Positions 33,043 through 62,255 of a DNA stretch of 64,000 nt are shown here, one piece after another. This DNA comes from an uncultured delta proteobacterium (lineage in GTDB: Bacteria; Desulfobacterota; Binatia; UBA9968). The notes under the pieces were generated by a model. It saw nothing but the letters and a program-made list of their open reading frames with translations, did no database searches and had not been told where the DNA came from. The stretch is from positions 96,001-160,000 of the forward strand of contig CAWJBB010000061.1 in assembly GCA_963840855.1 (NCBI GenBank), given 5' to 3'. Positions within the stretch are counted from its first letter, which is position 1. Each line of letters starts with the position of its first letter. The translations under genes were made by a program, and so were the position numbers.

Positions 33043-33236
33043 CCCGCAGCGCTTCCGGAAAACTCAGGCCGTGGCCATCAGCAACTCACCCCAAACATCC
33101 CGCAAACTATTCCACCGCGATGAGCACGTAGTTCACGGGTCTTTGGCGCCCATAAAAATCAGTTCTCGAACAAGAGACGAACCATGACCAATTTTTGGAG
33201 ATGTACTTGACGGAGAATTTCAGTTCAATCCTGGCA

Positions 33237-33330
33237 TCATCGAATCACCCTGTCCGCTCTCGCCAGCACATTCGGCGGAATCGTCAGCCCGATCTGTTTC
33301 GCCGTCTTGAGATTAATCACCAGCTCAAAA
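33237..33330 (-). pseudogene. 3' tail of an ABC_sub_bind (PF04392-like) gene
   Basis: [30 protein letters not shown], fused to a truncated cargo ORF. Confidence 0.8.
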
Positions 33331-33399
33331 ATAGGACGCTGCCCCATTAAATAATTGAAGAAATAGGTTGAAGCCCAAGACTTCTCGAAGAGTCCTCAT
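33325..33399 (-). pseudogene. Truncated copy of the DUF5658-like ORF at 40566..40888
   Basis: [24 protein letters not shown] versus [23 protein letters not shown]. Confidence 0.7.
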
Positions 33400-33476
33400 G
33401 TCACCCTCGCTGGTTGCGAAACGGACGTGGTGTCGAGTCGTTGCGCGTTGACGTGCGGTAGAACCATCTTCCTCGC

Positions 33477-33671
33477 CTAAAAATAGGCGGCCACGAGGGT
33501 AACGACCGTGCACAAACCAATGATGACCATACCGAATTGAAACACCCCACGAAGAGACGTATCTCCGCTCAACTCTTTCCTGACCCAGATCAGCGGCACA
33601 AAGAGAAGCGTTAAAAGAAAAATAGCAATTTCTGTATGGCTGATGGTCATTAGTGCGAGTTCCGGTTGCAT
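33477..33671 (-). CDS. Small two-TM protein; nonsense-shortened copy of 40885..41163
   Basis: MQPELAL...AAYF*; has TAG where the paralog has CAG. Confidence 0.6.
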   Translation of the reverse strand: MQPELALMTISHTEIAIFLLTLLFVPLIWVRKELSGDTSLRGVFQFGMVIIGLCTVVTLVAAYF

Positions 33672-33716
33672 CGACTTTCGCTCCGCACGGCGTGCTCTGG
33701 ACAGACAATCAGTGAT

Positions 33717-33971
33717 TTAGCGAGTTCGGCGCCGGGCGATGCTCTTGTTAACCCACTTGGTTGCTTCCGGGCAGAGGGTTTTGGTGGATTCGAGAATAAG
33801 GTTAGCGTCGGCGCTATCGCAAAGAACTCTGATCATTTTTTTTGGTTTTGCTGCTCGTTGGTCGTAAACAATCTCGCCACACATCAGGATAGCGTAGAGG
33901 CGAGACTCTTTCTGGAGCTGAGCCACAATCCGGTCGTAGTGTTCCGCAAAAATGTCAACCAATATTTTCAC
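33717..33971 (-). CDS. Hypothetical protein, paralog of 41429..41683
   Basis: 75 of 84 residues identical to the second copy. Confidence 0.7.
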   Translation of the reverse strand: MKILVDIFAEHYDRIVAQLQKESRLYAILMCGEIVYDQRAAKPKKMIRVLCDSADANLILESTKTLCPEATKWVNKSIARRRTR

Positions 33972-34051
33972 TGATAAAATCTAGCCTCGTTAAGATGTCA
34001 TTCTTGTTAAAACGTCATGATCTCTAACAAAGAAAAAGCTCCCTCGGCCGT

Positions 34052-34276
34052 TCAGTGAAGAGCGTTTGGCCGCTCCCGCCGTGTCGCAGCAAAGAGCGTC
34101 GCTATTTTTTGCCTTTCTTCAAGCGACATGGAACCTGCTGTACAGTCTCCACGTTTTGGGATTAATGCCGCGCCATCGTCGCTGAAAATCCAATAGCGCA
34201 ACCACGCTTGACGAAGAGTGTATCTTTGCCTTTGCAGTGCTTGGAAGAATATGCGCCACGGGAGCAATGTTGTCAT
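34052..34276 (-). CDS. Hypothetical protein of a three-copy PWR-x-FF family
   Basis: LLPWRIFF...WL..W.F...G.AL...SLEE.QK.A.LF, shared with 41177..41404 and 41745..41978. Confidence 0.65.
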   Translation of the reverse strand: MTTLLPWRIFFQALQRQRYTLRQAWLRYWIFSDDGAALIPKRGDCTAGSMSLEERQKIATLFAATRRERPNALH

Positions 34277-34303
34277 GTCAGCATCGCGCGAAGGCAGCTC
34301 GCT

Positions 34304-34564
34304 TTATGGAGCTACAGACTTGGGCGGCTTCGCGGAGTCTTCAAGCTTAGTATCGGGCTGTTGAATCTGCGGATCACCAGGCTCCGGCAGCTCTAGCTTT
34401 CTTAAAATGTCGCTTCCAGCTGGAGGCGGCTTGTTCGAGATGACCAGCCGACCGTGGAAATCTCTGTATATGTAATGCTCCTCGGCTTGGCCTTGTGTGG
34501 CTAGAGCGAGGCCCAAAAACAGGTAAAAGCAAAATACCAGTGCAATAGTAGTAAAGGTTTTCAC
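34304..34564 (-). CDS. Small secreted DUF4124-like protein
   Basis: AAGGAG RBS, signal peptide, YIYRDFHGRLVISNKPP. Confidence 0.65.
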   Translation of the reverse strand: MKTFTTIALVFCFYLFLGLALATQGQAEEHYIYRDFHGRLVISNKPPPAGSDILRKLELPEPGDPQIQQPDTKLEDSAKPPKSVAP

Positions 34565-34593
34565 GGGCGCGCTCCTTTTTCACGTCGGTGAAA

Positions 34594-34609
34594 AGCAGCA
34601 TATGTGCCG
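34594..34609 (-). promoter_or_regulatory. Sigma54 -24/-12 promoter
   Basis: CGGCACATATGCTGCT on the minus strand, 30 bp upstream of the DUF4124-like start. Confidence 0.5.
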
Positions 34610-35174: not shown

Positions 35175-36173
35175 TTAATTTCCGTATAGCTTCTTGATGA
35201 AGCCGCTGTCGTCGATTTCCTTCAAAATCGATGGATCGATAAAGTCGCCCGGGTTTAGGTTTTTCATCTGCGGCCTCGTCTTGGCGAGCTGATCGATTAT
35301 CGTTTGGATTCCTTCGCGGTCCGGGTAGGGCATTCTCCGGATCAGTCTCTGGGACATCTCGTCATAAGCCACTTGGACCAGCGATAGATCGTCGAGCCGG
35401 GTATATTTTTTCAGTACGTTCAGTGCAAGGTCTTTGTTCGTCTTAAACACGTAGATGCCTTCGAGATAGGCTTTCATGAATCGGACGACGACGTCCCGGT
35501 TGGCCTGAATGAAGCTTTTTCGCGCGCCGAAACCATGCATTGAATAAGTCACCCCAAGCTGGCTCAAATCGGCGAGAACGGCGGAACCCGACCGTATCGC
35601 CAGCGTCGCGAAGGGCTCGGAGAGGACGACGGCGTCCACGGCTTTGTTTTGTAGCGCAAGAAACTCTTCTTGCTCGCCGCCCACCTGGATAATGGCAACG
35701 TCTTTATCGGGAACCAGTCCCCAGCGAGTCAACGCATAGCGGATGGAAAAATCGCTGGCGCCCCCCAGCCGGGAAATGCCGACTTTCTTGCCCTTCAACA
35801 TTTCCGGCTTTTTGATCTCCGGATGCGAGATAATCTTGAACACAAAAGTATTGAGCGTCGCGGTCAGCCCGACGAAGTCGCCGCCGCCCATGTTAGCGTT
35901 GATGTTGGCGACACCGGCGCTGGTGATGAACTGAATCTCGCCGGCCAGAGCCGCCTGAACGGCCCGCGAGCTCACCGGAACAAAAAGAATTTCGGCGTCC
36001 ACGCCGTATTTACGCGCGAGGTCGAGCTCCTTCATGATGTAAACCGGATCAAATTGGATGCCTATGGAGGTGTAGGCTGCGCGGACTTTGGGGAGGTTTT
36101 GTCCCTGGGCTATGCCTGCTAAACCTAAAATGAAAGTCAGCCCAATTGCAAAACTTTTGACGCTTAACATCAT
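35175..36173 (-). CDS. ABC transporter substrate-binding protein, NMT1/THI5-like
   Basis: Signal peptide; LKGKKVGISRLGGASDF, FIDPSILKEIDDSGFIKKLY. Confidence 0.87.
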   Translation of the reverse strand: MMLSVKSFAIGLTFILGLAGIAQGQNLPKVRAAYTSIGIQFDPVYIMKELDLARKYGVDAEILFVPVSSRAVQAALAGEIQFITSAGVANINANMGGGDFVGLTATLNTFVFKIISHPEIKKPEMLKGKKVGISRLGGASDFSIRYALTRWGLVPDKDVAIIQVGGEQEEFLALQNKAVDAVVLSEPFATLAIRSGSAVLADLSQLGVTYSMHGFGARKSFIQANRDVVVRFMKAYLEGIYVFKTNKDLALNVLKKYTRLDDLSLVQVAYDEMSQRLIRRMPYPDREGIQTIIDQLAKTRPQMKNLNPGDFIDPSILKEIDDSGFIKKLYGN

Positions 36174-36371
36174 TCTTCTCTCTCCTTTTGTCTGCTATGC
36201 CATTGTTCCGTCACTGACAATAGAGTTCGTCAATAAAGCCTGAACGGTGGAGCTCCTCGATGCACGTGTAAGACCAGATTCAGCCTGAGATTGAACCGAA
36301 CGGCGCCTCGGGCAAACTTCGCAGGATCGAGTCGTCGGAGAAAACCGATCGATCCTAGCGTCGTCGGGTGG

Positions 36372-37355
36372 TTATTTGATTACTCTGTCCGCTCGCACCA
36401 GCACATTCGGCGGGATCGTCAGGCCGATCTGCTTGGCGGTTTTCAGATTAACGATGAATTCAAACTTCGTCGGCTGCTCCACCGGGAGATCTGCGGGCTT
36501 GGCGCCTTTGAGAATTTTGTCGACATAAGTGGCGGCGCGCCGGTCCAGGTTGAGGAGGCTCACGCCGTAGGACATAAGCCCACCGGCTTCGACGTACCGG
36601 GGTTCGTGGTATATCGCCGGGAGTCGGTTCTTTACCGCAAGGTCTGCAATCTGTGCCCTCTGAGCACCAAGGATGCCGCTCGCTAGTACGAGGACTCCGT
36701 CCGCGCGCCCCTTGCTCACTGCTTGAAATGTATTCTCAATATTTTTGAAATCTAAAACGTCGAGATATTGAAGCGTCACTCCGAACGCCTTCGCGGCGAG
36801 TTCCAGCTCTTTCCTTAGTGCGTCGGCAGGGCTGGTTGAAACCCCAAGGACGGCCAAGCGAGAGAGTTTAGGGACGACCTCTTTCAGAACCTCCAATCGT
36901 TTACCGTTTAGCTCCGGGGCAAGGGCGGACAGTCCCGTGATGTTTCCACCAGGCCGCGCCAGGCTGGCGATGATACCGTCGCCAACGGGATCGGCATCGT
37001 TGGTCATGACAATGGGAATCGTATTGGTCGCTTCCTTGACGGCACGGGTTGCGGTTGAACCGCTCGTGACGATGACGTCAAATTTGAGACGCGCCATTTC
37101 GGCCGCGAGTGCCGGAAGGCGCTCGAGTTTTCCGTCAGCGGATCGCCAATCAATGACGATGTTTTTACCCTCCACGTAGTGAAGGTCGCGCAGTCCCTGC
37201 CGGAATGCCTCGTGGCGGGCCGTGTTGGCGGAAAGGGAGACACCCCCTAGGTATCCAATCCGCGGGACTTTCTTTGGCTGCTGCGCGTCGGCTATGACTC
37301 CAATAGCAAGTAGAATCACTACGAACAGGATTGACAAGACACCAGCTTTTTTCAT
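36372..37355 (-). CDS. ABC transporter substrate-binding protein (ABC_sub_bind/PF04392-like), intact
   Basis: [52 protein letters not shown]. Confidence 0.92.
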   Translation of the reverse strand: MKKAGVLSILFVVILLAIGVIADAQQPKKVPRIGYLGGVSLSANTARHEAFRQGLRDLHYVEGKNIVIDWRSADGKLERLPALAAEMARLKFDVIVTSGSTATRAVKEATNTIPIVMTNDADPVGDGIIASLARPGGNITGLSALAPELNGKRLEVLKEVVPKLSRLAVLGVSTSPADALRKELELAAKAFGVTLQYLDVLDFKNIENTFQAVSKGRADGVLVLASGILGAQRAQIADLAVKNRLPAIYHEPRYVEAGGLMSYGVSLLNLDRRAATYVDKILKGAKPADLPVEQPTKFEFIVNLKTAKQIGLTIPPNVLVRADRVIK

Positions 37356-37442
37356 TGCACACCTAGTTCTCGACGTTACTTTTCCATACGGTTTATTTAC
37401 ATTCGGACGAACTCATTCAGCGTAACACCGATGGAGAGGTCG

Positions 37443-37778
37443 CTATTTGCCCACTGCCTTCAGTGCGGCCCTTGCTCGTTGCTCCGGCGTGGCCCAGTCG
37501 GCAGGAAGGTTCTTGGCTCGAGTGATCTTGGAGAGTTCCTTCAGGTACCGCTCGGATCGGCCAAGCTGCTCCATGCGTTGGTCAATCATGTAAGCTTGAA
37601 CGGGGTCGGTCGAATAGTTGGGGACTTTAGCGCGTCGCCATCGGCCCGCGCGATCCTGCTTCTTGCCTATAAGCACGCCTTCATGCTTGTGGACATTCTT
37701 CCAGCCGAACACTTTCTGCGCCGTTGCGGCGTCTAATGCAGGGCCAGGCCGCGTTATATCTCCAACTTTATGGGCCAT
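37443..37778 (-). CDS. Phage ABA sandwich domain-like protein
   Basis: LDAATAQKVFGW...PNYSTD...A...ATPEQRARAALKA. Confidence 0.6.
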   Translation of the reverse strand: MAHKVGDITRPGPALDAATAQKVFGWKNVHKHEGVLIGKKQDRAGRWRRAKVPNYSTDPVQAYMIDQRMEQLGRSERYLKELSKITRAKNLPADWATPEQRARAALKAVGK

Positions 37779-38512
37779 ACAGTTTTGAGAAACAGGCGGC
37801 GTTTGGAACAACGAGTTTCATTCAATCCTAGCATCGCTGCTTGGTTTTCTGCGATCACCTAATCACTTTGTCTGCTCTCGCCAGCAAATTTGGTGGAATC
37901 GTTAGGCCGATTTGCTTCGCAGCTTTGAGGTTAATGATGAACTCGAACTTTGTCGGCTGTTCGACCGGCAGGTCAGCGGGCTTCGCGCCCCTTAGAATTT
38001 TGTCGACCATTACTGCGGCGCGCTGGTAGGATTCGGTGTCGTCTGCGCCATACGACATCAATCCACCGAGGGTGACGTATTCCTTCCGAGTGGAGATCGC
38101 GGGGAGCCGGTTTTTTGCTGCCAATCCCACGACCCGTGGGCTATTGGCCGCGAATAAGGTGGCCTGGGTCATCAAGACAGCGCCACTGCGTACTTTGACA
38201 GCGTCGCGAAAAGCAGTCTCGTATCTATCGGCACTGCTCACTTCCATGGAGTGCAGTTGCAACCCTAATTGCCGCGCTGGCTCCTGGCTATCTTTCCATT
38301 GTTCGGCGGACGCGGGATTCTTTGGATCCCACAGTATCGCCACGCGTGTGAGTTTGGGAATGGTTTCTTTGAGTATCTCCAGCCGTTTGCCGGACAGGAG
38401 TGCATTTATGGTGCTGAAGCCTGTAACATTACCTCCGGGCCGCGCCAAGTTGGTGACTAGCCCAGAGCCAACCGGATCAGGTACATTATAGAAAACGATC
38501 GGGATCAGCTTA

Positions 38513-39567
38513 GGCGTTGTAAATAAATAAAGGTATCAATCGAAGGATAATTGGTGTATGATTTTCGAGCATGAACAGGCTGTCCGAATTGAAGCGGAAG
38601 TTGCGTACCGCATGGCCGCATTTGGACGAACGTACGCGGCGCATCATGGCTGCCAGTGAAGCATTGAGTCTGGGCTATGGAGGGGTTTCTGCGGTACGAC
38701 GTGCGTGTGGCTTGTCGCGCAAGGCGATCCGCAAAGGGATGCGGGAAATCCAGGCAAGGGGTAAGCCGTTGGTGGGCCGTATTCGTCGGCCCGGAGCGGG
38801 CCGCAAACCCATCATCGAGTCCGATCCGGGGCTGGTGCAGACGATCGAGGGGTTGATTGATGAGCAAACGCGCGGAGACCCGCAGTCTGCGCTGCGTTGG
38901 ATTTGCAAAAGTACGCGAGCCATCGCCCAGGAACTGGATCAGCAGCAACATCCTGCCAGCCACATGAAGGTCGCGCAGATTCTTCATCAACTGGGCTATA
39001 GCCTCCAGAGCAATCGCAAAACCGAGGAGGGAGCGGATCACCCCGATCGCGATGCCCAGTTTCGCCACATCAACCTCACGGTCAAAAGATGCCTGAGGCA
39101 AGGGATCCCAGTCATTTCGGTGGACACGAAAAAGAAGGAACTGGTTGGGAACTACCACAATGGCGGCCAGCAATGGCGTGTGGCCAAAAAGCCCAGGCGG
39201 GTTCAAGGTCACGACTTTCCCAGTCCAGAAGTTGCCCGCGCCTATCCCTACGGCATTTACGACATTGGACGCAACGCCGGTTTTGTTAACGTGGGAACCG
39301 ACCACGATACCGGTGCCTTTGCGGTGGCATCGATTCGGGGTTGGTGGCGCACGGAGGGCCGGCGCATTTATCCGCATGCGAAAACGATCCTGATTACGGC
39401 CGACGGCGGTGGCAGTAACGGGTGGCGGTTGCGGCTGTGGAAGTTGGAGCTGCAAAAATTCGCCAACCAGACCGCACTGGGCATTGAGGTCTGTCACTTT
39501 CCTCCCGGCACCAGCAAATGGAACAAAATCGAGCACCGACTGTTTTTCTTTATTTATTTACAATTCC
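38513..39567 (+). mobile_element. ISAzo13-family IS with internal deletion
   Basis: Inverted ends GGCGTTGTAAATAAATAAAG / CTTTATTTATTTACAATTCC; 3-bp TTA duplication at 38510-38512 and 39568-39570. Confidence 0.9.
38571..39547 (+). pseudogene. ISAzo13 DDE transposase, C-terminally truncated
   Basis: ISVDTKKKELVG, ITADGGGSNG, PPGTSKWNKIEHRLF, then runs straight into the right inverted repeat. Confidence 0.88.
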
Positions 39568-40392
39568 TTAGTCGCGCCCTTGGCGGCGCGGACTTCAACC
39601 GTTGTTGGTGCGATAATTACGTCGGCCTTGAGCCGCACGAGTTCCTCAGCCAAAGCAGGTAGGCGCTCGAGTTTATCCTCGGCGTAGCGATACTCGATGG
39701 TAATCGATTTGCCTTCGACGTATCCGAGAGCAGCCAACGCACGCCGAAATCTCTCGCCGCCGCCGCCCGGCCCGCCTGGCGACCGGCCGCCGAGCCAGCC
39801 GAGCTTAGCAACCTTCCCCGGCTGTTGCGTCTCGGCGATTGCTGCAACAACAAGCAGCATCATTACAACAAGGATTAATGGCACCGCAGCCCTCTTCATT
39901 GCGCACCTCGTTTCGACGTTATGTATCACGCGGATGGAAATAAAGAAAAGGTGATTACGGATTTACGGCGAAAGGCGACGGGTAGTCGTCGAGTAGGAAG
40001 GCCGGATTTCTCCTAAGATTGAACTGAACGACGCAACGGACAAATCTCACAAGATTAGGGGCGCTTTAGTTTTGGGCACTACACGCTGATGAACAATGGC
40101 CATTTGAGCAGTTTCAAAATGCGCTCGCGAACCCTAGGTATGGACGGGCCGAAGCCTGAAGCCCGCTGGCAAGTGCTGAATGCGTCGCTGAACGCGATCA
40201 AGCGGGTGGTTCGTCGATGAAGTTGCAAGCGACGCATACACGATGGCAGTGAATGTTAAGGCTTGTCGCGAAGCCGGTGATTGTTATCCGGCGGATCTGC
40301 ATGGGCCGCCCAGCCGTCGCCGACAGCAATCCAGCCGCGCGCAGCCCTGGGCCGCCAGCACATAGATTCACGAAATATCGCTCGTTATGAGT

Positions 40393-40563: not shown

Positions 40564-40565
40564 GG

Positions 40566-40888
40566 CTATTTTCCTTTCATCAAGCGGAGTGAATCAAATG
40601 GAAAACTAGGTAAACAAGAAGAACCTAGAGCCGAATAGACTATCGCCACGAAGGTCAAGCCTCGAAGCGGCACCATCGGTCGGTAACGACCAATCGAATA
40701 CAATATAACGAGCAGAGCACAGAAAAGACCTTCCAATAGATCAACGCCCACAAAACCCCCCAAGCATCAATCGCAGCACTGACGAACGGGTTCAATTCGG
40801 ATTCGCCGCGAGACAGGATGAAATAGGACGCGGTCCCATCGAATAGCTGAAGAAACAGGTTGAAGCTCAAAAGCTCTCGAAGATTCAT
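40566..40888 (-). CDS. DUF5658-like membrane protein (indel near 40725)
   Basis: LQLFDGTASY...GESELNPFV...WK motif with hydrophobic helices over two frames. Confidence 0.6.
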
Positions 40889-41163
40889 GTTGTCGCCCTG
40901 ACAGGTTGGGAAACGGACGTGGTGTCGAGTCGTTGGGCGTTGAAGTGCCGTCGACCCATCTTCCTCGCCTGAAAATAGGCAGCCATGAGGGCAACGACCG
41001 TGCATAAACCAATGATGACCAAACCGAGTTGAAACACACCTTGAACCCGCGCATCTCCGCTCAACTCTTTCCTGACCGAGATGAGCAGAACAAAGAGAAG
41101 CGTCACAAGAATAATCCCAATAACAGTGTAACTGATGGCTTTGAGTGCGAGTTCCGGTTGCAT
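40885..41163 (-). CDS. Small two-TM hypothetical protein
   Basis: MQPELALKAISY...; ATGA overlap with the next gene; paralog at 33477. Confidence 0.6.
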   Translation of the reverse strand: MQPELALKAISYTVIGIILVTLLFVLLISVRKELSGDARVQGVFQLGLVIIGLCTVVALMAAYFQARKMGRRHFNAQRLDTTSVSQPVRATT

Positions 41164-41176
41164 CGAGTATGGCCTC

Positions 41177-41404
41177 TCAGTGAAGGGTTCTTGGCCCTCT
41201 TCCCAATGCCATAAGGAAAAGCACCGCTCGTTTCTGCTTTTCCTCAAGCGACAAGGGTGGAGCTTTGTGCTTTTCCCGTCCTAGGACCAAGGCTGCGCCA
41301 CCATTGGTAAAGGTCCACCGCACTAACCACGTTTGAACGGTTTGGGAATCTTGTTTCTGAAGGTCTTTAAAAAAGGCTCGCCAAGGGATCAATGTTGTCG
41401 GCAT
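41177..41404 (-). CDS. Hypothetical protein, PWR-x-FF family
   Basis: MPTTLIPWRAFF...SLEEKQKRAVLF. Confidence 0.65.
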   Translation of the reverse strand: MPTTLIPWRAFFKDLQKQDSQTVQTWLVRWTFTNGGAALVLGREKHKAPPLSLEEKQKRAVLFLMALGRGPRTLH

Positions 41405-41428
41405 CGAAGAGGTCTCCCAATGGGCAAC

Positions 41429-41683
41429 TTAGCGAGGTCCGTGACGGGCAATGCTTTGCTTAACCCACCAGGTTGCTTCCGGGCAAAGCGTCTTGGTGGA
41501 TTCGAGAATAAAGTTAGCGTCGGCGCTATCGCAAAGAACTCTGATTATTTTCTTTGGTTTTGCTGCTCGTTGGTCGTAAACAATCTCGCCACACATCAGG
41601 ATAGCGTAGAGGCGAGACTCTTTCTGGAGCTGAGCCACAATCCGGTTGTAGTGTTCCGCAAAAATGTCAACCAATATTTTCAC
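41429..41683 (-). CDS. Hypothetical protein, paralog of 33717..33971
   Basis: Near-identical duplicate. Confidence 0.7.
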   Translation of the reverse strand: MKILVDIFAEHYNRIVAQLQKESRLYAILMCGEIVYDQRAAKPKKIIRVLCDSADANFILESTKTLCPEATWWVKQSIARHGPR

Positions 41684-41744
41684 TGACAGAATCTAGCCTT
41701 GTTAAAACGTCATGACCTCTAAAGAAAGATGCTCGCTTGGTCGT

Positions 41745-41978
41745 TCAGTGGAGGGTTCTTAGCCGCTCCCGCCGTATCGCAGCAAAGAGCGTCGCTATTT
41801 TCTGCTTTTCCTCAAGTGAGAATAGCGTCGCTTCGTAGTTTGCGCCGCCATCCACGAGGGCTGTGCCAGCGTCAGAAAACGCCCAACGTGCTAACCAGGA
41901 TTGAAGGTGTTCTTGTTTGTGTTGTCGGGTGCTAAGCGCGTGAAAGAATACGCGCCACGGGATCAATGGTGCCGGCAT
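41745..41978 (-). CDS. Hypothetical protein, PWR-x-FF family
   Basis: MPAPLIPWRVFF...SLEEKQKIATLF; sigma54-like CGGCACGCCATTGGCT at 42005-42020 upstream. Confidence 0.65.
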   Translation of the reverse strand: MPAPLIPWRVFFHALSTRQHKQEHLQSWLARWAFSDAGTALVDGGANYEATLFSLEEKQKIATLFAAIRRERLRTLH

Positions 41979-42974: not shown

Positions 42975-43241
42975 AACGAACGACTCCTAAAATCAATCAC
43001 TTACAAAACGTCTCGCAATAGCAGGTGTTAGCCGAAAAGGTACAGTGGTAGGAAAAATCAAACTCGCGATAAGGCCATTTTTGTGGAGCCCACACCCGAG
43101 TTCGGCAGTGAGGCCAGTGTGATAACGCGAGCCGAATCGCTGATAGGCGGATTATTCTGGCGGGATACCGGTTGGCGGATCTAGGATGAAGTCGTAGGAG
43201 AATATAGTTCAATCCTAGCGTCGCCGTTTGGCTTTCTTCCG

Positions 43242-44228
43242 TTACTTAATTACCTTGTCCGCCCGCGCCAGCACATTGGGCGGGATCGTCAGGCCGATTT
43301 GCTTGGCGGCTTTCAGATTGATGATGAACTCGAACTTTATCGGCTGCTCAACGGGAAGGTCCGCGGGTTTCGTACCTTTAAGGATCTTGTCCACATAAGT
43401 GGCGGTGCGCCGGAACATGGCGACAATGTCAGCCGCATAAGACGTGAGGCCGCCCGTCTCAACATATTCGCTGTTTGGATACATCGCCGGCAGCCGGTTC
43501 TTGGCTGCGAGGTCTACGATCCGTGGTCGAAGGCGATCCAGCGTAGGTTGTTGCAGCCCGATAAAAGCACCGGCGCGCCCTGTTGTCATTGCCGAAAAAG
43601 CATTCTCCAAATCGTTGGGCCCTCGAACTTCTACGGGTCGAAGCTGCAGACCCAACGCTCGCGTGGCGACCTCCAGCTCTTTTATCTGCGGGCCGTGGCC
43701 TCCAGTGCCGGGGTCCGTGAGGACAGCCACGAGGGAAAGCTGGGGAATAATTTCTTTGAGCAGCTCTAGGCGCTTTCCCCCCAGCTCCGGCGCTAGATGG
43801 GTTAATCCTGTGATGTTACCCCCAGGCCTTGCTAGGCTCGCCCACGAACCCGAGCTCAACAGGGTCACTGCCATGCGCCATGACGACTGGGATCAGCTTG
43901 GTAGCATTCTTAGCCGCTCGAATTGCAGTAGATCCGCCGGCAACGATGACATCAACGTTTAGACGGACTAGCTCTCCCGCCAGGTCGGGGAGCCGATCCA
44001 ACTTCCCTTCCGTATATCGGGGCTCGATGGCCAAGCTCTGTCCCTCAACATACCCAGCTCGCGCAAACCTTGGCGGAACGCTTCAATGCGGGCGGCATCA
44101 GAGGAAGGTGAGAGCACCGATAAATACCCTATCCGATGGACTTTCTTCGGCTGCTGCGCCTCGGCGATGACTGCAACAGCAAGCAGTACCACTGCAATCA
44201 GGATCGATGGCACCGCAGCTCTCTTCAT
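43242..44228 (-). CDS. ABC_sub_bind protein (two indels)
   Basis: Three overlapping ORFs give a complete PF04392-like sequence. Confidence 0.88.
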
Positions 44229-44436
44229 TGCCCACCTCGTTTCGAGTGTTTTGTATCACGCGGATCGAAATAAAGGAAAGTGTGACTTACGGCAGAAGGC
44301 GACCGTGCTTCGTCGAGGGGAAAAACCAGATTTTTAGCTTGAGATTGAACTGATCGACGCATCCGGCAAATCTTAAAGGATTTGATTCGTCGGAGAATTC
44401 AGTTCAATCCTGGCATCGCTGCGTGGTTTTCTGCAA
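44229..44436. repeat. Complete copy of the conserved inter-SBP spacer with hairpin
   Basis: GATTGAACTGA (44343-44353) / TCAGTTCAATC (44399-44409) with inner stems; whole or partial copies near 33209, 36271, 37356, 37811, 39900, 43190, 45422, 53311, 54410, 59916 and 62110. Confidence 0.85.
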
Positions 44437-45421
44437 TCACTTTATGACCTTGTCCGCCCGCGCCAGCACGTTGGGCGGAATCGTCACGCCTATCTGCTTG
44501 GCGGTTTTTAGATTAATCACAAACTCAAACTTCGTAGGCTGCTCCACCGGGAGATCAGCGGGCTTCGTGCCTTTGAGGATCTTATCCACGTACGTAGCCG
44601 CGCGCCGGTACAGATCCGGGACGTTGGTCCCATAGGACATCAGTCCGCCAGCCGCCACGAACTCTGTCGCCCAAAACATGGTCGGCAGCCGGTGCTCTGC
44701 CGCAATGTCTACAATTCTTGCTCTCTGCCTGAGAAACATCTGGCTCGTGAGCACGAGGAGCGTGCCGGCCCGCACTCTCTTCATCGCCGAGAGAGCACTG
44801 CCGAACTCCTTGGGATCTCGGACCTCGAAAGAGCTGAAGCTTCACTGACAATGCTCGAGCGGCCGTCTCCACCTCTTGCAGTATGGGGGCGCTAATTGGA
44901 TCCTTCGGATTTGAAAGGACGGCGACGGGGGAGAGGTCGGGGAAGGCCTCCTTGAGCAACTCGAGCCTTTTGGCGCTCAAGTCCGTGGTTAGATTGGTCA
45001 ACCCCGTGATGTTCCCGCCCGGCCGTGCGAGACTTGCGACGAGCCCGCTACCAACCGGATAGGAAACTGCTGTAAACACGATCGGGATCTTTGGGGTAGC
45101 ATTCTTCGCGGCCAGGGCCGCTCCCGTAGCAGAGACAAAGATAACGTTGACGTTAAGACGCACGAGTTCGGCCGAGAGATCGGGTAACCGATCGACCTTG
45201 CCCTCTGCACTTCGAAACTCAAAGGCGATATTCTGGCCCTCGACATAACCGAGCCTACGCAACTCCTGAAAAAACACCTCAAGAAAAGGTTCGGAGCGCG
45301 GGACGTCGAAGGTCAGAATGCCGAGCTGGAAGAGCTTCGCCGGCTGCTGAGCCTCGGCCATCAGTCCAACGACAAGCAGTGTTACTGCAATCAGGATTGA
45401 TGACACACCAGCTTTTTTCAT
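44437..45421 (-). CDS. ABC_sub_bind protein (one indel near 44830)
   Basis: MKKAGVSSIL...[11 protein letters not shown]...[13 protein letters not shown]. Confidence 0.88.
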
Positions 45422-46039
45422 TGCATACCTTGTTCTGGACATTACTTATCACGCGGACGGAAATAAAGAAAAGTGTGATTTACCGGGGAAGGCGACAGGG
45501 ATTCGTTGAGCAGCAAGGCCAGATTCACTCCGAGATTGAATTGACGACGCAACGGACAAATCTCACAGGATTGCGTCGTCGGAGAAATCAGTTCAATTAG
45601 AAGGTTAACGCCACGCTTCACCGGAAGCGATGGTTAGACGCTCCCGACGATGAACTGGGTAACATTTCGGAAATGGCGTGACTCGTTCGGTTTTTGCCAC
45701 ATCAGTTGTCGGACTGCTTCCTTTGCTTCTTCTATCCGGCCAGGATCGAGTTTTGCTGTCGTTACACCGGCTAATACTTCCCAGGCAAACGCAAAGGTAT
45801 CAAATACGAATCCTAGCTCTTGAGCACCTTGATCGGAAGGTTCGCGACCGATATCGGATCGTCAATGTTACGGGCGTTGATGGCGAGCCAATCGGAAAGC
45901 GTCGCATCGTTTTCCAGCGCTCTCGTGGTGAGTAACGCAGCCACAGTTCTTGCAGCGATAGTCCCGAGCACGTTCCATTAACACCACCACTTGTTTCCCG
46001 CCTGATCGCGTGCTCCGCTGCATGCCAAGGGTCTTTCGC

Positions 46040-46985: not shown

Positions 46986-48379
46986 TGTCACCGAACAATT
47001 AAAAGTGCACTGGTTTAAACTTTAAAAGTGCACTAATTGTCTTCTTTGGGTTTTCATCATCCATTGAACCAGGGAGGACAAGATGGGCAAGCATCTGCGC
47101 AAGCTTTTTTCGGTAGACCAGGTAAAGGAAGTGTTTCAGAGGTATCTATCACGGCAGATCGCAGTGGATCAGGCATCGGCAATACTCAAGATTCGAAGGC
47201 GTCAGTTTTTCAAATTGTTGAAGCTTTATCGGGAGGGGCCAGAGAGTTTTTCCTTGGATTACACAAGAAAGGCACCTCCTCGGAAGATCGATGCCAAAGC
47301 AGAGGCAAGGATCATGCAGGAACTGAAGAAAGAGACCGAGATCATTGGGGACAAGCGCAATCCGGTGCGGTTCTACAACTACAGTTATGTGAAAGAGGTC
47401 CTGGAGAAGAAGCACAAAGTGAGTGTGTCTTTGCCGACGATCATCCGGCGGGCGAAAAAAATGGGCATTACCAGCAAAGGCCATCTAGAAAGGCCCACGA
47501 CCGGGAGATCCTGACCAACTATGTGGGAGAACTTCTCCAGCATGATACCTCCTACCATCTGTGGTCTCCGCTGGCACAAACCAAGTGGTATCTCATCACG
47601 ACCATCGACGATCACAGCCGTAGGATTTTGCATGGGGAGCTGTGGGACAAGGAGACCTCCTGGACCCATATCGTGGCTCAGAAGGCCGTGCTGACGCAGT
47701 TTGGCTGTCCGTTGAAGTACTATGTCGACAATCATTCGATCTTCCGCTACGTGGAGAAAAGAGACAGCGTGTGGAGGAAGTTTGACACTCCAGAGGAGCA
47801 AGCCTTGGTCCAGTGGAAGGAGGTTCTTAAAGACTTAAGCATCGAGGTGGTTTATGCCTTGAGTCCTGCCGCCAAGGGAAAAGTGGAGCGGCCCTACCAA
47901 TGGCTGCAGGATCACCTGGTCAGGACGTGTGTCCGGGAGGGAATCACAAGCATCAATCAAGGTCGGCAAGTGCTCTATGAAGAGCTTCATCAGTACAACT
48001 ACAAACGGGTTCACTCCACTACCGGAGAAATCCCGGTCCTTCGCTATGACAAGGCTCTTGAGGAAAACAGAGGCCTGTTTCGGAGATTTGAAATCCCCCG
48101 ACCGTATCAGACCCTTGATGATATTTTCTGTTACCGATTCAAAAGGACGGTGGACCCTTATCGAAAGGTCTCCTGGAACACACTGAAGTTCAGCGTTTCG
48201 GGTGTTCCTATTCGTGAAGAAGTGGAACTGCGGATCAGTTTCAACCTTAAAACCCGGCTGGCCCTCATTCGATTCTGGTATCAGGAAAAGCTCGTGGGAG
48301 AGCGACAAGTCAAAGCCGAGGATCTCAAGAAAGTGCACTTTTAAATGTTCAACAGTGCACTTTTAAAAGTTTCCCAACA
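46986..48379 (+). mobile_element. IS1202/IS481-related IS with 16-bp target duplication
   Basis: TGT...ACA ends; repeated AAAAGTGCACT motifs, two at each end; flanking direct repeat GGTTCTGAAATCTGCG at 46970-46985 and 48380-48395. Confidence 0.88.
47083..48344 (+). CDS. DDE transposase (rve-type), -1 frame change at the A7 run 47455-47461
   Basis: N-terminal HTH; GELLQHDTSYHLW, IDDHSR, YVDNHSIF, SPAAKGKVER. Confidence 0.87.
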
Positions 48380-53125: not shown

Positions 53126-53361
53126 GTGCCTTTTTTGTCACCGCAAAAGGCTATCATGCCCTGCGGCTCGCCTTGAATCCTGAACCTATTTTGAATCCTG
53201 AAACCTATTTTCAGTACTACTGCCAATCGTGGACGAACGGCGTCTTTGGGCAGGCGTCCTAATTCTGGCGATCAGGATCGTGAAAATGCGACACGTTGTT
53301 TGCGGACTACGTTGATGGAGAATTCAGTTCAATCCTGGCATCGCCGCTTGGTTTGCTGCGA

Positions 53362-54344
53362 TCACTTAATCACCTTGTCCGCTCGCACGAGCACATTTGG
53401 CGGGATCGTGAGGCCGATCTGCTTAGCTGCTTTCAGATTGATGATGAACTCAAACTTCGTCGGTTGCTCCACGGGGAGATCGGCGGGCTTCGCGCCTTTC
53501 AGAATTTTGTCCACATAAGTAGCAGCGCGCCGATACAAGTCGCTGGCGTTCACACCATATGACATCAGTCCCCGGCCTCCACTTCTTGTGCACTTTCGTA
53601 AATCACTGGAAGCTGACTCTTTACTGCGAGTGCTGCAACCTCTGTTCGGTGAGCAGACAAGCTGGGGCCCGGCACCCGGAAAAGGACGGCGTCAGCGCGT
53701 CCCTTGGCTGCATCTCGGAATGCGGTCTCAAAATCTTTGGGACTTACGATGTTCAGGGATTGAAGCTTCACTCCGAGTGGTCTTGCGGCGATCTCGATCT
53801 CTTTTAACACTAGCGCATAGTCCGCACTCCCTGAACTCGCGAACAGGGCCACGCGCGATAGCTTTGGAACGATCTCCTTCAGAAGCTCCAGCCGTTTTCC
53901 ACTTAGCTCCGGGCGAAGGATTGCCAATCCAGTAATGTTCCCTCCCGGCCGCGCAAGGCTGGCGACTAAACCGCTTCCAACAGGATCGCCACCCCGCACC
54001 ATGACAATTGGGATTGCGGCGGTCGCCTCCTTGGCTGCGCGTATCTCTCCCGAACCGATTGCAACGATGACGTCTACCTTGAGACGCACCAGTTCGGCCG
54101 CGAGCGCGGGATTGCGATCTAGTTTTCCTTCATTAGCTCGCCATTCAATGACAAGGTTTTTTCCTTCCACGTAGCCGAGGTCGCGCAGACCCTCCCGGAA
54201 TGCCTCGCTATAGGACCGGTTAGCCGAAGTGGAGGGAGTTAGGTATCCTATCCGCGGCACTTTCTTCGGCTGCTGCGCGTCGGCGGGAAAGCAAAGCGCA
54301 AAGAGCATGGCGCAAAGCGTAAGGACCGTGATTTTTCTCGTCAT
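53362..54344 (-). CDS. ABC_sub_bind protein (one indel near 53570)
   Basis: [14 protein letters not shown]...[13 protein letters not shown]...[13 protein letters not shown]. Confidence 0.88.
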
Positions 54345-54851
54345 GCTTTTCTCTGCTCTTTCCACGCGACACTCGACCCTCGACACTCGACCGTTATCAC
54401 TTGATTCATTGCGCACCTCGTTTCGAGCGTTACTTATCACGCGGATGGAGATAAAGGAAAGTGTGATTTACACGACAGAAGGCTAAAGGTATTCCGTCGA
54501 GTGGGAAAACCAGATTTTTAGCCTGAGATTGAGTTGATCGACGCTTCAGTTCAATCGGATGGTGGATACACCTTTTTGATTGGTAGTCAGAAGGGCTGCC
54601 GTACTGCGTATCTACTTTGGACTCTTTTGTAGCTGTCCGGGACGTGTCCGGGTCCGCGTGAATCGAACCGAACCGCCGACACGAGGCAAAAAAACCGAAG
54701 ATCGCCAAGTGATATGCAGTGATAAATCTTTTCAGATCAACGACTTCACATCCGCTCCGGTTTCACTGAGTGAGAAGGATTGCTAACCAGGTTTGGAACA
54801 AAAACCGGAACAATTCTTCGGCTAGGTTTCCTGCTTGATCCAAGTTGCGCT

Positions 54852-58635: not shown

Positions 58636-58738
58636 AAGGTACCCTTGTTCCCTGCGCCTCTTTTTGCCGGTGCTTCTGTTCGTGTAGTCTATATTGTATC
58701 CGTTATATAACAGCTGTATCTTTATCAAGGAAATATCG

Positions 58739-59716
58739 ATGCAGTCAACAAACGAAGGGCGGTGGTTTCTGCTTATTCATCAGATTCCACCGAAGCCAAA
58801 TTACTTGCGGGTAAAAATCTGGCGCCGATTACAGCGGCTCGGCGCAGTGCCGATCAAAAACACCGTTTACGTTCTACCGAAAAGCGATCAGGCACGAGAA
58901 GATTTTCAGTGGGTGCTGCGAGAGATTGTGCAGGGAGGCGGAGACGGTACTCTCTGCGAAGCTCGATTGGTTGACGGAGTGACCGATGAGCAGGTTGAGG
59001 CGTTGTTTCAGTCGGCTCGCGAGGCCGACTACGGACAGATTGCTAAAGACGCCCGTGTGATAGCCAAGACTCTACCGACCAGAGGCAAACTCGCGACGCA
59101 GGATACGACTCAAATTCAACAGGATATAGTGCGACTCAAACGACGGCTTGATGAGGTCGTCGCGATCGATTTCTTCGGCGCTCCGGCTCGGGAGGCCGCA
59201 ACTGGATTGATCACGGGGATCGAAGCTCGCTTGCCCAGCAGTAAAGCAAGCCATCGCGCTTTCGAAACGGGAGAGCGCGCTCGCGAGAACTTGTTAGGCA
59301 AGACTTGGGTGACACGTAAAGGAATCCACGTTGACCGAATGGCAAGCGCCTGGCTCGTCCGCCATTTCATCGATTCGGATGCGAAATTCAAGTTTGTTCC
59401 AGCCAAGGGCTATAAGCCACTCAATGATGAAATACGATTCGACATGTTCGAGGCAGAATACACGCATGTGGGAGACCGCTGCACTTTTGAAGTTTTAATC
59501 GACAGTCTCGGGATTTCGGATTCTGCCCTGAGTGCGATTGGCGAGATCGTTCACGATATCGATTTGAAGGATGCAAAATTTGAACGGCACGAAACCACCG
59601 GCGTTGACCACTTGATTGCGGGCATAGCTATGGCCCATAAGGACGATGAGAGTCGGCTCGCCCAGGCTGCTGCCGTCTTCAATAACCTGTACGAGTATTT
59701 TAAGAGAAAGGAGTAA
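58739..59716 (+). CDS. chrB: Chromate resistance regulator ChrB
   Basis: RVKIWRRLQRLGA, IDFFG, WVTRKGIHVDRMASAWL, FDM...THVGDRCTFE, IVHDIDLKD. Confidence 0.92.
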   Translation: MQSTNEGRWFLLIHQIPPKPNYLRVKIWRRLQRLGAVPIKNTVYVLPKSDQAREDFQWVLREIVQGGGDGTLCEARLVDGVTDEQVEALFQSAREADYGQIAKDARVIAKTLPTRGKLATQDTTQIQQDIVRLKRRLDEVVAIDFFGAPAREAATGLITGIEARLPSSKASHRAFETGERARENLLGKTWVTRKGIHVDRMASAWLVRHFIDSDAKFKFVPAKGYKPLNDEIRFDMFEAEYTHVGDRCTFEVLIDSLGISDSALSAIGEIVHDIDLKDAKFERHETTGVDHLIAGIAMAHKDDESRLAQAAAVFNNLYEYFKRKE

Positions 59717-60140
59717 GACTTTAGGATGGACCTCCGGGAGCATAAATCGCGACGGTTCCGGAATTGGCTCCACTTTGCTTTGGCTCATTTGGGTTGAATT
59801 CGAATGTGCCAAAAACCATCTGAAAAGGCACGGCAAATTCCTCAGATTTTTGGCTAATTCAGCGGAACGCATTCGGCAGCCAATAAAAAATGATTTTGGA
59901 TAGGGGCGGAATTAAGTAGAAGGAGAAATCAGTTTAATCCTGGCATCGCGGCTTCGCTTTCCTTCGCTCACTACACCAGAACAGTGGCGGCTTATCCAAA
60001 GTCGAATTTCGGACGTGTTCGGCGAAAGCGAAGCGCTCAGTTTAAGGTTGTCGCTGGCGGGCGCCGGACGTTGGGCCGTCGCCAACCCGGTTGACGCGGT
60101 AGCTTGTCTTGTATCTCCCGTTCGAAATCTCCCAGCTGGG

Positions 60141-61346
60141 CTAAGGCGCGTTATAATTCTGTCCGGCTACCAGCCAGGGCGTCTGACCGAAGGTGAGCTT
60201 CCCGAATACTCCGGCGTGATCGGATGCCCAATTGGGCGGCAGGAATAACGGGAAGATGGGAACCTGGCCTGTGACGAACGCCAGCGGCACGAACGACTGT
60301 TCGCGTACGAAGATGACGTCGATTCTTTCGTTGAGGAGTGACACCGTGTTTGACAGGTCCGCCAACTGGCAGCAGGTGAAACCGCCCGGATTGAAGAACT
60401 TAAGAGGGTTCGTGTCCCAGATGTCCGCGAAACCCGCGCCGGCGATGATCTGGTAGGGCGGAGTGACGCCGGCGATTGGTTCATGCTCGGGCGAGGAGTT
60501 GAAGTCGCCGACGAGAATCAGCGTCAGGTTGGGGGGCGTGGTTGCTTGCAACGTTGCGACCAGTTCCACCGACTGTAGGGACTGGAAAATCGCGCCGAGC
60601 TCCCTGACCTCAAGATGCGTGTTGACAAAGCGATATTTCTTCCCCCTCACGGTGGCGTCGACGCCGACGAAGCCTTTCTGGATACTGATCGGCTCGTCGA
60701 AGAACGGCGAATCGACTTGCGCCACGGTGGTGTAGTTGCAGCCGTCCTCTGAGGGCGAGGACTGGAGTGGGAAAGGAAACGGTGTCAGTGGAACAATAAC
60801 CCCACAGAGCCCGCCGGCGGTGACGTTCCCCTTTAGTAGAGTGAACGTGACGCCTTTTCGGGCCAGAATCACGTCACGGTCGACCACCCTCACCGTCTCA
60901 GGGGTTCCGTCCCCATTCACGTCGAAGAGAATTGTAATGTCCAAGTTTACTACTGTCGCTGCCACAACATAACTCTGGCCCTTGGCAGCAAGGGCGGCGA
61001 GAGTCACGGCCAGATGGTCGACGAAGGGCGGTCCGACATTCGCCCCGTTCAGCTTGAGATCAACGACCTCCTGGAGGCCGATCAGATCCGGCTCGGTGAG
61101 GGCGACCTCCGTGGCCAAGCGCTGGGCTCTAAGCGGGAAGTTGTTGGCTGCAGCCTGCGTGAGCGCAGTGGCCGCTGCGACGAACAACTCCTCTGGCGTC
61201 TGCGCCAGAATTATCGGCGTCAGATCCGCACCGAGATACTGATTTCGCGTCATCACCTTGACAATGTCGCCGTCAGCAAAAGTCGGAGCGGAAAATACGG
61301 TGAGAACCAGCAGTCCCCCGAGGGCGAGTCCGAATAGGCGTTTCAT
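60141..61346 (-). CDS. Secreted endonuclease/exonuclease/phosphatase family protein
   Basis: Signal peptide; VMTRN, IGLQEV, VNTHLE, VGDFNS, RIDVIF, SDHAGV. Confidence 0.88.
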   Translation of the reverse strand: MKRLFGLALGGLLVLTVFSAPTFADGDIVKVMTRNQYLGADLTPIILAQTPEELFVAAATALTQAAANNFPLRAQRLATEVALTEPDLIGLQEVVDLKLNGANVGPPFVDHLAVTLAALAAKGQSYVVAATVVNLDITILFDVNGDGTPETVRVVDRDVILARKGVTFTLLKGNVTAGGLCGVIVPLTPFPFPLQSSPSEDGCNYTTVAQVDSPFFDEPISIQKGFVGVDATVRGKKYRFVNTHLEVRELGAIFQSLQSVELVATLQATTPPNLTLILVGDFNSSPEHEPIAGVTPPYQIIAGAGFADIWDTNPLKFFNPGGFTCCQLADLSNTVSLLNERIDVIFVREQSFVPLAFVTGQVPIFPLFLPPNWASDHAGVFGKLTFGQTPWLVAGQNYNAP

Positions 61347-61767
61347 CGTGCCTCTCCTTTCGCAAAAGGTTCGCCGCTGGACGGCGCCGTCCTCACATTT
61401 ACCGGACCGAGAAAAACCCGATTAGGAAGGTCGGGCTGGTAACCCAAATCTTTGCTTAGGACAACGCGGAAACCATAGTCAAGACAGCGTCAGTCTGTCA
61501 ATGCCGAAGTAGTGAGTGCCGAAGTAGTGAGTATGCTGACCAGTATATTACTGATTTGAAAAATCCCACCTGTCACCGCCGCGCGGTTTTCTTCCATCAC
61601 ATTGTCGGCCATTTTTCAATTTCACGATCACGGCTCGTTAAATCGCTTCTTTTTCGGCTTACGTGACTAGGAATATTTACCGAATTCGCCTTTGAATTAT
61701 ACCAGGCCATTGCTGTTCGAATAAGGCCCTTGTTTTTAAGCGCCGGGTTACCTATAAGAGCCGAACC

Positions 61768-62091
61768 ATGAAAGTCACACGACTCTACACCGGAGTGGAC
61801 CGCCAGTCGCATTTCGAAGAAATCGAGGTGGAGATCAACAAGCTCCAGCCGGGGGATGGTATTGTTTTCCGTGAAGGTACCCCCGACAGTGTTAACCGCT
61901 GGCATCAGGCACCTAGACGGCAGTATGTGATCAACCTGTCAGGTGAAACTGAGATCGAGATCGGCGATGGTACCAAGCGGCGCTTCGGCCCTGGCGATGT
62001 TCTTCTGGCAGAGGATACTTCCGGTCAGGGTCATATCTCGCGAGACGTAGGCGCCCAGCCGCGCCGCTTTGTATTCATCCCTGTAAAATAA
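61768..62091 (+). CDS. Cupin-fold protein
   Basis: WHQAPRRQYVINLSG...EDTSGQGHISR. Confidence 0.85.
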   Translation: MKVTRLYTGVDRQSHFEEIEVEINKLQPGDGIVFREGTPDSVNRWHQAPRRQYVINLSGETEIEIGDGTKRRFGPGDVLLAEDTSGQGHISRDVGAQPRRFVFIPVK

Positions 62092-62201
62092 GAGAAGCGC
62101 ATTTCATCGCAGCACGAACTGTTCGCGTCAGACAAATTTCACAAGATTTGGTTGATGGAGAATTCAATTCAATCCTGGCAGCGCAGCTTGGTTTTCTGCC
62201 A

Positions 62202-62255
62202 TCACTTGATCACTTTGTCCGCGCGCGCCAACACATTCAGCGGAATCGTGAGACC
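62202..62255 (-). pseudogene. 3' tail of an ABC_sub_bind gene
   Basis: GLTIPLNVLARADKVIK*, followed on the minus strand by the conserved spacer. Confidence 0.75.

Follow-up and report, generated by a model that had tools for sequence, protein, structure and literature searches.

A conserved palindrome at the edges of orphan PF04392 genes in a Binatia-type soil bacterium coincides with junctions of recent exchange

The soil bacterium studied here is represented by a Binatia-type metagenome-assembled genome (MAG, G000) of 7.1 Mb in 93 contigs, with a completeness of 94% and an estimated contamination of 8.3%, and it carries about a hundred copies of one gene, which encodes a substrate-binding protein (SBP) of family PF04392 (ABC_sub_bind). 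We analysed a stretch of 64,000 nucleotides of contig C61 (positions 96001-160000), referred to as the window; window coordinates are contig coordinates minus 96000. An earlier note on this DNA had described its SBP genes as an array whose hairpin spacer captures foreign DNA in the manner of an integron. We find that the spacer contains a discrete imperfect palindrome that is conserved in several genera, stands beside SBP genes and beside unrelated genes, and coincides both with clustered old breakpoints and with the ends of recently exchanged blocks. We give about an even chance to the explanation that this palindrome is a selected, lineage-specific boundary element acting as a homology-guided exchange point.

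The 208-bp spacer at 44229-44436, which joins two tandem SBP genes as the earlier note had it, is real and is one copy of a family of 93 repeats. A profile of 200 positions was built from it by iterated nhmmer, and the numbers given below as profile or hmm positions refer to this profile. The spacer is composite. A gene trailer of ~20 nt (profile 1-20) directly follows the SBP stop codon, an imperfect palindrome of ~75 nt (ATTGAAC...GTTCAAT) comes next, and an SBP-specific leader of ~100 nt (profile 98-200) carries GAGGTG at its end before the start codon. The complementary arms occupy profile 21-33 (GGATTGAACTGAA) and 77-89 (TTCAGTTCAATCC), and directly inside them lie the near-invariant hexamers TTCTCC (mean column conservation 0.97) and GCGTCG (0.96), so that the arm-plus-hexamer sequences read GGATTGAACTGAATTCTCC and GCGTCGTTCAGTTCAATCC. 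Column conservation is 0.90 and 0.88 in the arms and 0.73 in the inner part and apex. Trailer and leader are found only beside SBP genes. Beside genes of other kinds, similarity sets in at ATTGAAC and breaks off directly behind GTTCAATC, and the palindrome is thus a discrete unit.

In the tandem spacer of the window the arms (GATTGAACTGA and TCAGTTCAATC) are 100% complementary and 45 nt apart. Folded as single-stranded DNA, the segment 44335-44420 gives -16.8 kcal/mol (z = -3.9, with 0 of 200 shuffles as good), in the form of a 12-bp outer stem, a one-sided bulge of 4-5 nt and a 5-bp CGACG/CGTCG stem; half copies gave no significant fold by the same procedure. Many copies are cut at profile 33, 47-59 or 64-78, and there are short forms consisting of arm, 8 nt and arm (at 54.5 kb) or of arm, TTCTCC and arm (contig C50). 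The 3'-only copies read as 13+6+13 mini-palindromes, and an 11+8+11 layout is visible in the 5'-only ones.

We made the profile scan of the genome and its relatives that the earlier note had proposed as a check. The 118 nhmmer hits in the genome include 25 weaker opposite-strand shadows, which arise because the element is palindromic, and their removal leaves 93 copies on 16 contigs, each with the same strand as the SBP genes around it. An SBP 3' end lies just upstream of 35 copies and an SBP start just downstream of 31; 10 have both and 37 have neither. On contigs C75, C85, C27 and C50 successive copies are spaced at 0.4-2.5 kb, and the DNA that separates them has no similarity to SBP genes. 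The intervening open reading frames (ORFs) on C75 encode a YHS-domain protein, a weak AurF-like protein and small products without families, and the distances from stop codon to palindrome there are 42-218 nt. Similar arrangements occur in other MAGs: one locus (L009) reads SBP, palindrome, alpha/beta hydrolase with a TAT signal, palindrome, and another (L013) reads palindrome, GYD-domain ORF, palindrome, small ORFs, palindrome, SBP. Large SBP arrays on C6, C32, C34 and C68 are without any copy, so the palindrome belongs to a subset of the SBP family. It is also not a genome-wide repeat, because the 11-nt arm motif occurs outside the hits at chance level (132 found versus about 115 expected genome-wide). 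Within the same taxonomic family the element is present in 8 of 24 other genomes, which makes six genera counting this one, and it is absent from all 16 genomes searched of two sister families. Of 74 loci taken from other MAGs, 9 contained it, whereas in viral contigs a 19-nt arm pattern matched once, by chance, and the element was not there. Literature searches on Binatia substrate-binding proteins and on PF04392 gave no description of the palindrome.

A short, palindromic, multi-copy element in a genome with a large REP-like family and 10 Y1_Tnp (IS200/RAYT-type) hits could be selfish DNA of the REP or MITE type that has invaded the regions between SBP genes or, given the contamination estimate, an artefact of MAG assembly or binning. 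We regard this as very improbable, since the palindrome is confined to SBP islands and to the local SBP strand, was found independently in many MAGs, and has a polarity (TTGAAC...GTTCAA) opposite to that of the REP-like family. No copy lies close to any of the 10 Y1_Tnp loci, so that a linkage to RAYT enzymes, which the earlier note had suggested looking for, is not seen here; and none of the 523 REP-like clusters lies within 2 kb of a copy, against about 17 expected from the islands' share of the genome. The REP-like family itself is separate and abundant, with runs of 3-5 GTTCAA units at a 7- or 9-nt period paired with TTGAAC runs ~39 nt away; 138 hairpin-type pairs occur genome-wide, and the only occurrence in the window is at 2896-2919. 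REP and BIME elements are extragenic palindromes, short and conserved, that lie at the ends of genes, in some cases as pairs; they seed rearrangements and stabilise upstream mRNA (e.g. malE-malF). The palindrome described here resembles them in being short, conserved, located at gene ends and tied to rearrangements, but it is not genome-wide, has no RAYT linkage, and is longer and composite.

Hairpin cores (73 copies) have an identity of 0.752 within a genome and of 0.709 when compared across genomes. Because the two values are nearly equal, the element is old, and selection, not recent homogenisation, keeps it. Spacers are also more conserved than coding DNA: in nine tandem spacers the distances of the three parts are 0.21, 0.27 and 0.30, versus 0.34-0.35 for the adjoining 400 nt of coding DNA. 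The Mantel r of the spacer against either neighbouring gene is about 0, a Mantel test of which neighbour the palindrome halves follow was not significant (n = 9), and the passive case envisaged in the earlier note, with spacer identity tracking that of the genes, is therefore not what is seen. The palindrome may be conserved for a role at RNA 3' ends or as an insulator, or as a protein-binding site, and a putative function of this kind is the most likely primary one; service as a recombination site is another candidate for what selects it.

It is possible, and in our view unlikely, that the flanks are nothing other than cis-regulatory sequences belonging to the SBP family, namely a 3' stem-loop together with a promoter or leader, under purifying selection, carried along by ordinary tandem and segmental duplication, with accumulated cargo and an incidental enrichment of junctions. 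The palindrome stands alone between unrelated genes in at least three organisms, and the 37 of 93 copies with no SBP gene on either side fit this explanation poorly, although the trailer and leader, being confined to the SBP neighbourhood, fit it well. The paralogs are old (49-71% amino-acid identity), and neutral flanks would have eroded so that only functional blocks remain alignable. Large segmental duplications between islands, plain insertion sequence (IS) insertions in two of the cargo stretches of the window, and the ordinary non-SBP contexts in which same-genus genomes hold the cargo genes are likewise as expected from duplication and accumulation. A 75-nt element conserved in sequence after unrelated genes is, however, unlike independent terminators, no terminator or promoter consensus was found in the spacers, and the palindrome holds a sixfold excess of recent block ends.

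Breakpoints are not spread uniformly over the repeat, as the earlier note had allowed they might be. Among 100 internal alignment ends, taken as old breakpoints, 24 fall in profile 51-60 (the apex), 22 in 91-110 (the right base) and 21 in 11-30 (the left base), a clustering with chi2 of 103 and p = 8e-15. Recent exchange was assessed from blocks of at least 250 nt with at least 93% identity to another place in the genome, across 333 kb of island sequence. The spacer hits cover 3.3% of island bases and contain 16 of the 79 unique block ends, a sixfold enrichment (binomial p = 6e-9), and many of the remaining ends belong to IS copies. Recent ends placed on the profile lie at 27, 31, 40, 50, 82, 88, 88, 95 and 98, all within the palindrome.

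Two hybrid junctions allowed the crossover to be mapped. At C85:104930 the left side matches one locus on C69 (99.96% over 2352 nt) and the right side another C69 locus, with the switch in the shared GCGTCGTTCAGTTCAATC; at C46:104631 the left side matches C75 (99.3% over 3152 nt) and the right side C50, with the switch in the shared AATCCTGTGAGATTTG at the apex. The two shared stretches measure 18 nt and 16 nt. As the crossovers occupy two different intervals, each the longest identical stretch available, they look homology-guided rather than tied to a fixed point.

We infer that exchange is guided by homology rather than directed by an enzyme. In the mechanism we propose, an autonomous palindrome of ~75 nt, kept by selection, would mark the edges of gene-sized modules, mostly orphan PF04392 genes and also unrelated ones. 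The ~90 similar copies share one orientation and are gathered in a few genomic islands, which would make them preferred exchange points. Ectopic recombination between copies, within identical stretches of 15-20 nt, would exchange the DNA on either side, and its products would include tandem arrays, hybrid junctions, half-copies and the 'cargo' found between copies. The earlier note had offered a recombinase target, a homologous-recombination anchor and a self-propagating cassette as options, and of these the anchor is the best fit.

Several results count against a selected boundary element with homology-guided exchange. About 19 copies are 3'-only and 16 are 5'-only; as complete palindromes would be the expected product of homologous exchange between full copies, the half-copies need another process, such as deletion at the apex, or are mini-palindromes with a history of their own. 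The mapped crossovers number only two. The breakpoint statistics are limited by the approximate nature of nhmmer alignment ends and by the relatedness and non-independence of the copies, and at the given level of contamination some of the 99-100% duplicates could be assembly or strain artefacts. Covariation adds nothing to the fold beyond sequence conservation: in a hand-written structure 80.1% of cells are paired versus 79.7% in shuffles, because the arms hardly vary, and RNAalifold gave no consensus on 37 copies. Rfam gave no match over 31-64 kb at E<=1, and the spacers contain no terminator-like or sigma-70-like site; the 14 terminator-like sites at 36-46 kb (versus 11.6 in shuffles) all lie outside the spacers. 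The putative primary function draws no direct support from these scans.

A further explanation holds that the palindrome is a true site-specific recombination site and that the modules are cassettes moved by a tyrosine recombinase, the sites being either divergent attC sites in CALIN-type clusters served by the genome's integron integrase (IntI) or abutting Xer/dif-like core sites as in pdif. We regard this as doubtful, and hold as equally tentative its extension to a new Binatia-type cassette system, with a divergent attC class or paired dif-like sites, in which PF04392 modules with their own leader would be excised, shuffled and inserted; if true, it would explain the assembly of about a hundred SBP genes together with their mixed neighbours. 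In the IntegronFinder paper the AAC and GTT triplets are the most conserved positions of attC, the loop is variable at 20-100 nt, and CALIN are clusters without an integrase (10.1101/030866). The palindrome has an AAC...GTT polarity at its outer ends that fits this description, and with a length of 70-80 nt, boundaries at ATTGAAC and GTTCAAT, extra unpaired bases on the 5' arm and a position 3' of genes it is attC-like in outline. Copies are similar within a genome, and same-strand arrays with a spacing of 0.4-2.5 kb part unrelated, mostly single genes, far from any integrase though the genome encodes IntI (C1:45987-46880; TIGR02249, 440.7-442 bits with a cut-off of 265). The near-invariant hexamer beside each arm, the recent crossover interval that spans GCGTCG and the right arm, an integrase N-terminal fragment within the C75 array, and a Xer-like recombinase with an IS91 transposase 174 nt from a cut copy on C35 also point in this direction.

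Other features of the system are difficult to reconcile with it. The element and IntI are not associated: of 25 family genomes, 4 have both, 5 the element only, 7 IntI only and 9 neither, where IntI is counted above the cut-off, one of the IntI-only genomes (G009) is unpublished, and MAG incompleteness weakens absences. No copy lies within 20 kb around the IntI gene on C1. The stem of 11-12 bp followed by a one-sided bulge of 4-5 nt has its asymmetry on the arm expected for attC but is unlike the canonical layout of R box, unpaired spacer and L box with single extrahelical bases, and each palindrome box deviates at one position from the attC consensus RYYYAAC/GTTRRRY. Half and truncated copies (ending at profile 33, 47-59 or 64-78) are numerous, unlike attC arrays, and PF04392 with its own ~100-nt leader dominates the modules. 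For copies without an SBP neighbour the nearest ORF is co-oriented in just 23 of 35 cases upstream and 21 of 35 downstream, by crude ORF calls. The two crossovers are not at one point, the one at the apex lying outside any putative core, and the C35 recombinase is part of an IS91-type insertion. The recombinase-run capture platform of the earlier note is not borne out by these data, and nothing ties the palindrome to an integron enzyme.

At C1:42600-47012 (L093:2601-7012) the integron integrase gene adjoins three consecutive tyrosine-recombinase genes on the other strand, and no cassette-like array follows it. The insertion at C35:32582-34726 (L094), an IS91-family transposase and a Xer-like recombinase within a palindrome copy cut just before the right arm, looks like an ordinary one. 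The IntI neighbourhoods of genomes G002 and G018 were suspected to carry related sites, which turned out to be genome-wide GTTCAA-repeat palindromes. The pdif (Xer) modules of Acinetobacter plasmids are gene-sized and flanked by inverted sites, each with two ~11-bp arms, one conserved and one variable, around a 6-8-bp centre. In architecture only, the halves of the palindrome are similar, each with a conserved arm of 11-13 bp, a 6-8-bp centre and a weaker second arm, and the modules are flanked by inverted sites; here, however, there are two sites per junction, and their centres differ (TTCTCC and GCGTCG).

In the window, PF04392 sequences between 33 and 62 kb form five loci and two 3' tails, all on the minus strand (Table 1). 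The earlier note gave their places and strand correctly but counted five full or nearly full genes, whereas only 36372-37355 is intact; six of the seven other pieces also exceed the Pfam gathering cut-off. The gene at 37855..39929 is interrupted exactly at residue 113 by a ~1.05-kb ISAzo13-family fragment, and the frameshift in 53362-54440 may be an assembly error, because contigs of three public runs have one more base in the G run. The nearest relatives of the window SBP genes come mostly from MAGs with the titles 'Candidatus Binatia' or 'Deltaproteobacteria'. Four public runs (soil and other metagenome contigs and one metatranscriptome) yielded short unitigs in which paralogs were heavily cross-mapped and joints of spacer halves were indistinguishable from other paralogous tandem spacers; the best run contained 0.22 of the sampled words.

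The 54 ORFs scanned at 31-64 kb include neither a permease nor an ATPase, in agreement with the earlier note, and the whole genome has 114 PF04392 matches versus only ~5 PF02653 permease loci, so that the label 'orphan' is fair. Large expansions of orphan solute receptors are known from the Bug/TctC proteins of Bordetella, which the present family resembles in having about a hundred periplasmic binding-protein genes versus a handful of cognate permease loci; we know of no conserved boundary palindrome in families of the Bug/TctC type.

Table 1. Positions of PF04392 genes, profile hits and insertion elements in the window (bit scores and hmm ranges as obtained)
Feature	Position	Strand	Evidence and remarks
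SBP gene, intact, 327 aa	36372-37355	-	Pfam PF04392, 173.6 bits (cut-off 25.9); without canonical leader
SBP gene in two halves (one gene)	37855-38448 + 39558-39929 (37855..39929)	-	tblastn residues 113-327 and 1-113
SBP pseudogene	43242-44228	-	translation: three in-frame stops across a frameshifted stretch
SBP gene, one-base frameshift	44437-45442	-	two overlapping ORFs, Pfam match in halves, sequence
SBP gene, one-base frameshift in G run	53362-54440	-	ORF calls, Pfam; extra base at 53569 in contigs of 3 public runs
SBP 3' tail	about 33240-33374	-	tblastn residues 274-327
SBP 3' tail	62202-62255	-	sequence similarity to PF04392 SBP genes
Complete spacer between tandem genes, with trailer at hmm 1-20, long palindrome at hmm 21-97 and SBP leader at hmm 98-200	44231..44430	-	nhmmer hmm 1-200, 201.8 bits
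Palindrome and leader upstream of SBP 44437-45442, no SBP gene upstream	45426..45597	-	nhmmer hmm 23-198; similarity from ATTGAAC
Trailer and diverged palindrome after intact SBP gene	36267..36375	-	nhmmer hmm 1-112; fold z -0.7; then NMT1-type SBP gene 35175-36173 (Pfam NMT1)
Palindrome right half and leader of IS-split SBP gene	39902..40062	-	nhmmer hmm 43-200
Mini palindrome (GATTGAACTGA-8 nt-TCAACTCAATC) and leader of SBP 53362-54440	54412..54557	-	nhmmer hmm 58-200
3' module (trailer and left half) after SBP 43242-44228	43182..43234	-	nhmmer hmm 2-55
3' module after SBP 53362-54440	53308..53353	-	nhmmer hmm 3-48
3' module after SBP tail 33240-33374	33186..33239	-	nhmmer hmm 13-66
Orphan 3' module, ~180 nt downstream of non-SBP EEP-family gene 60141-61346 (Pfam Exo_endo_phos)	59909..59960	-	nhmmer hmm 1-52; no SBP HSP upstream
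Trailer and degenerate palindrome after SBP tail 62202-62255	62104..62195	-	nhmmer hmm 1-97; direct repeat D4
ISAzo13-family fragment inside SBP gene	about 38506-39560	transposase ORF 38571-39662 on +	NCBIfam ISAzo13, 471.7 bits
ISNCY/IS481-like insertion in 'cargo'	46986..48379 (rve ORF 47037-48344)	+	NCBIfam 132.7 bits, below curated cut-off

Ten of the 93 genomic copies fall in the window, at the sites given in the earlier note. Its coordinates for a spacer split into left and right parts agree with the nhmmer matches to within a few bases, except that 37380 and 37811 are weak or truncated. The parts are simply the 5' flank of a downstream gene and the 3' flank of an upstream one. The 'left part' at 40058 and the 'right part' at 37811 flank one and the same gene, because 37855-38448 and 39558-39929 are a single IS-split gene.

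The proposal that a unit of SBP gene and spacer is amplified as a whole is too simple. SBP paralogs in the window share 66-73% identity over the coding sequence and 77-86% in the flanks, by self-comparison, and their products share 49-71% amino-acid identity among themselves. The coding sequence of 36372-37355 is ~95% identical (blastn 94.4-94.9%) to two copies on contig C35. These three, the most recent copies of one SBP gene, have their coding sequence in common and not their flanks: the canonical leader is missing from ~12 nt upstream of the start codon of the window copy, and the 3' flanks end at a different point in each. The history of the SBP genes is decoupled from that of their flanks. 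In all SBP paralogs the last ~160 nt of coding sequence are 75-90% identical in DNA, even in palindrome-free arrays, so that the '3' tails' are the fragments most readily noticed.

Of the five stretches that the earlier note saw as cargo between spacer parts, two are affected by ordinary IS insertion, and part of the cargo is plain IS activity. One is the ISAzo13 fragment inside the SBP gene, of which a 99.6% identical copy lies on contig C72 and a 94% copy in genome G001. The other is the long stretch at 45.6-53.3 kb, which holds the ISNCY/IS481-like rve ORF; the site of this insertion is empty in the same-genus genome G002, where both flanks abut (G002:C367). The remark that no integrase is visible in the window needs to be qualified for the ISAzo13 transposase and the rve ORF, and the 'phage ABA protein' at 37431-37811 has no Pfam match. 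In same-genus genomes the cargo genes (DUF1080-type, NMT1-type SBP, chrA-chrB and gamma-PGA hydrolase) occur as single-gene patches of 81-91% identity, and their surroundings contain neither SBP genes nor the palindrome, at the protein level also. Synteny with five related genomes is likewise limited to single-gene patches. Within the genus, the cargo is not syntenic.

A small-ORF cluster without clear families is duplicated in the window (33329-34126 and 40821-41819, 83-86% identity), the first copy abutting an SBP tail. An ORF running off the window end (63300-63998) matches the C-terminal TcB-binding domain of the Tc-toxin TcA, and a poly-gamma-glutamate hydrolase gene (62554-63312) adjoins it.

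The SBP islands elsewhere in the genome have further recurrent components. Genes or fragments for SRAP (YedK/HMCES-type, PF02586) lie in SBP islands on C50, C27, C85 and C75 in 12 of 13 genomic matches (e.g. L089:9519-10199 and L085:1264-1974), and on C75 the N-terminal half of an SBP is fused in frame to the C-terminal part of a SRAP. A non-coding segment of 158 nt, 94-97% identical in five places (C27:165734-165891, C50:82025, C50:98065, C50:99311 and C65:418), takes the place of all but the last ~10 codons of the SBP gene. The usual trailer and palindrome come after it, and it may represent the end of a mobile element. A 2.69-kb element is present in seven copies of 99-100% identity (C85:105125-107814 and six other places), one of which interrupts an SBP gene behind residue 81. 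Recurrent neighbours of the arrays on C75, C85, C27 and C50 are hybrid histidine kinases with GAF or MASE1 domains, response regulators and a GGDEF protein (e.g. L083:7062-9758 and L084:2744-8683), a hint that sensors, and not transporters, may be what the orphan binding proteins serve.

Soil bacteria commonly hold very large sets of orphan SBP genes, whose origin calls for an explanation. In the present genome such an expansion is accompanied by a boundary element that is conserved, structured and older than the split of several genera. Recent rearrangements happen at this palindrome, which offers a concrete way to test how arrays of paralogs gain and lose members and take up unrelated genes. 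Should a recombinase take part, the system would amount to a new cassette platform, from a phylum without cultured members; otherwise it would be a clear natural case in which a dispersed functional palindrome steers genome plasticity.

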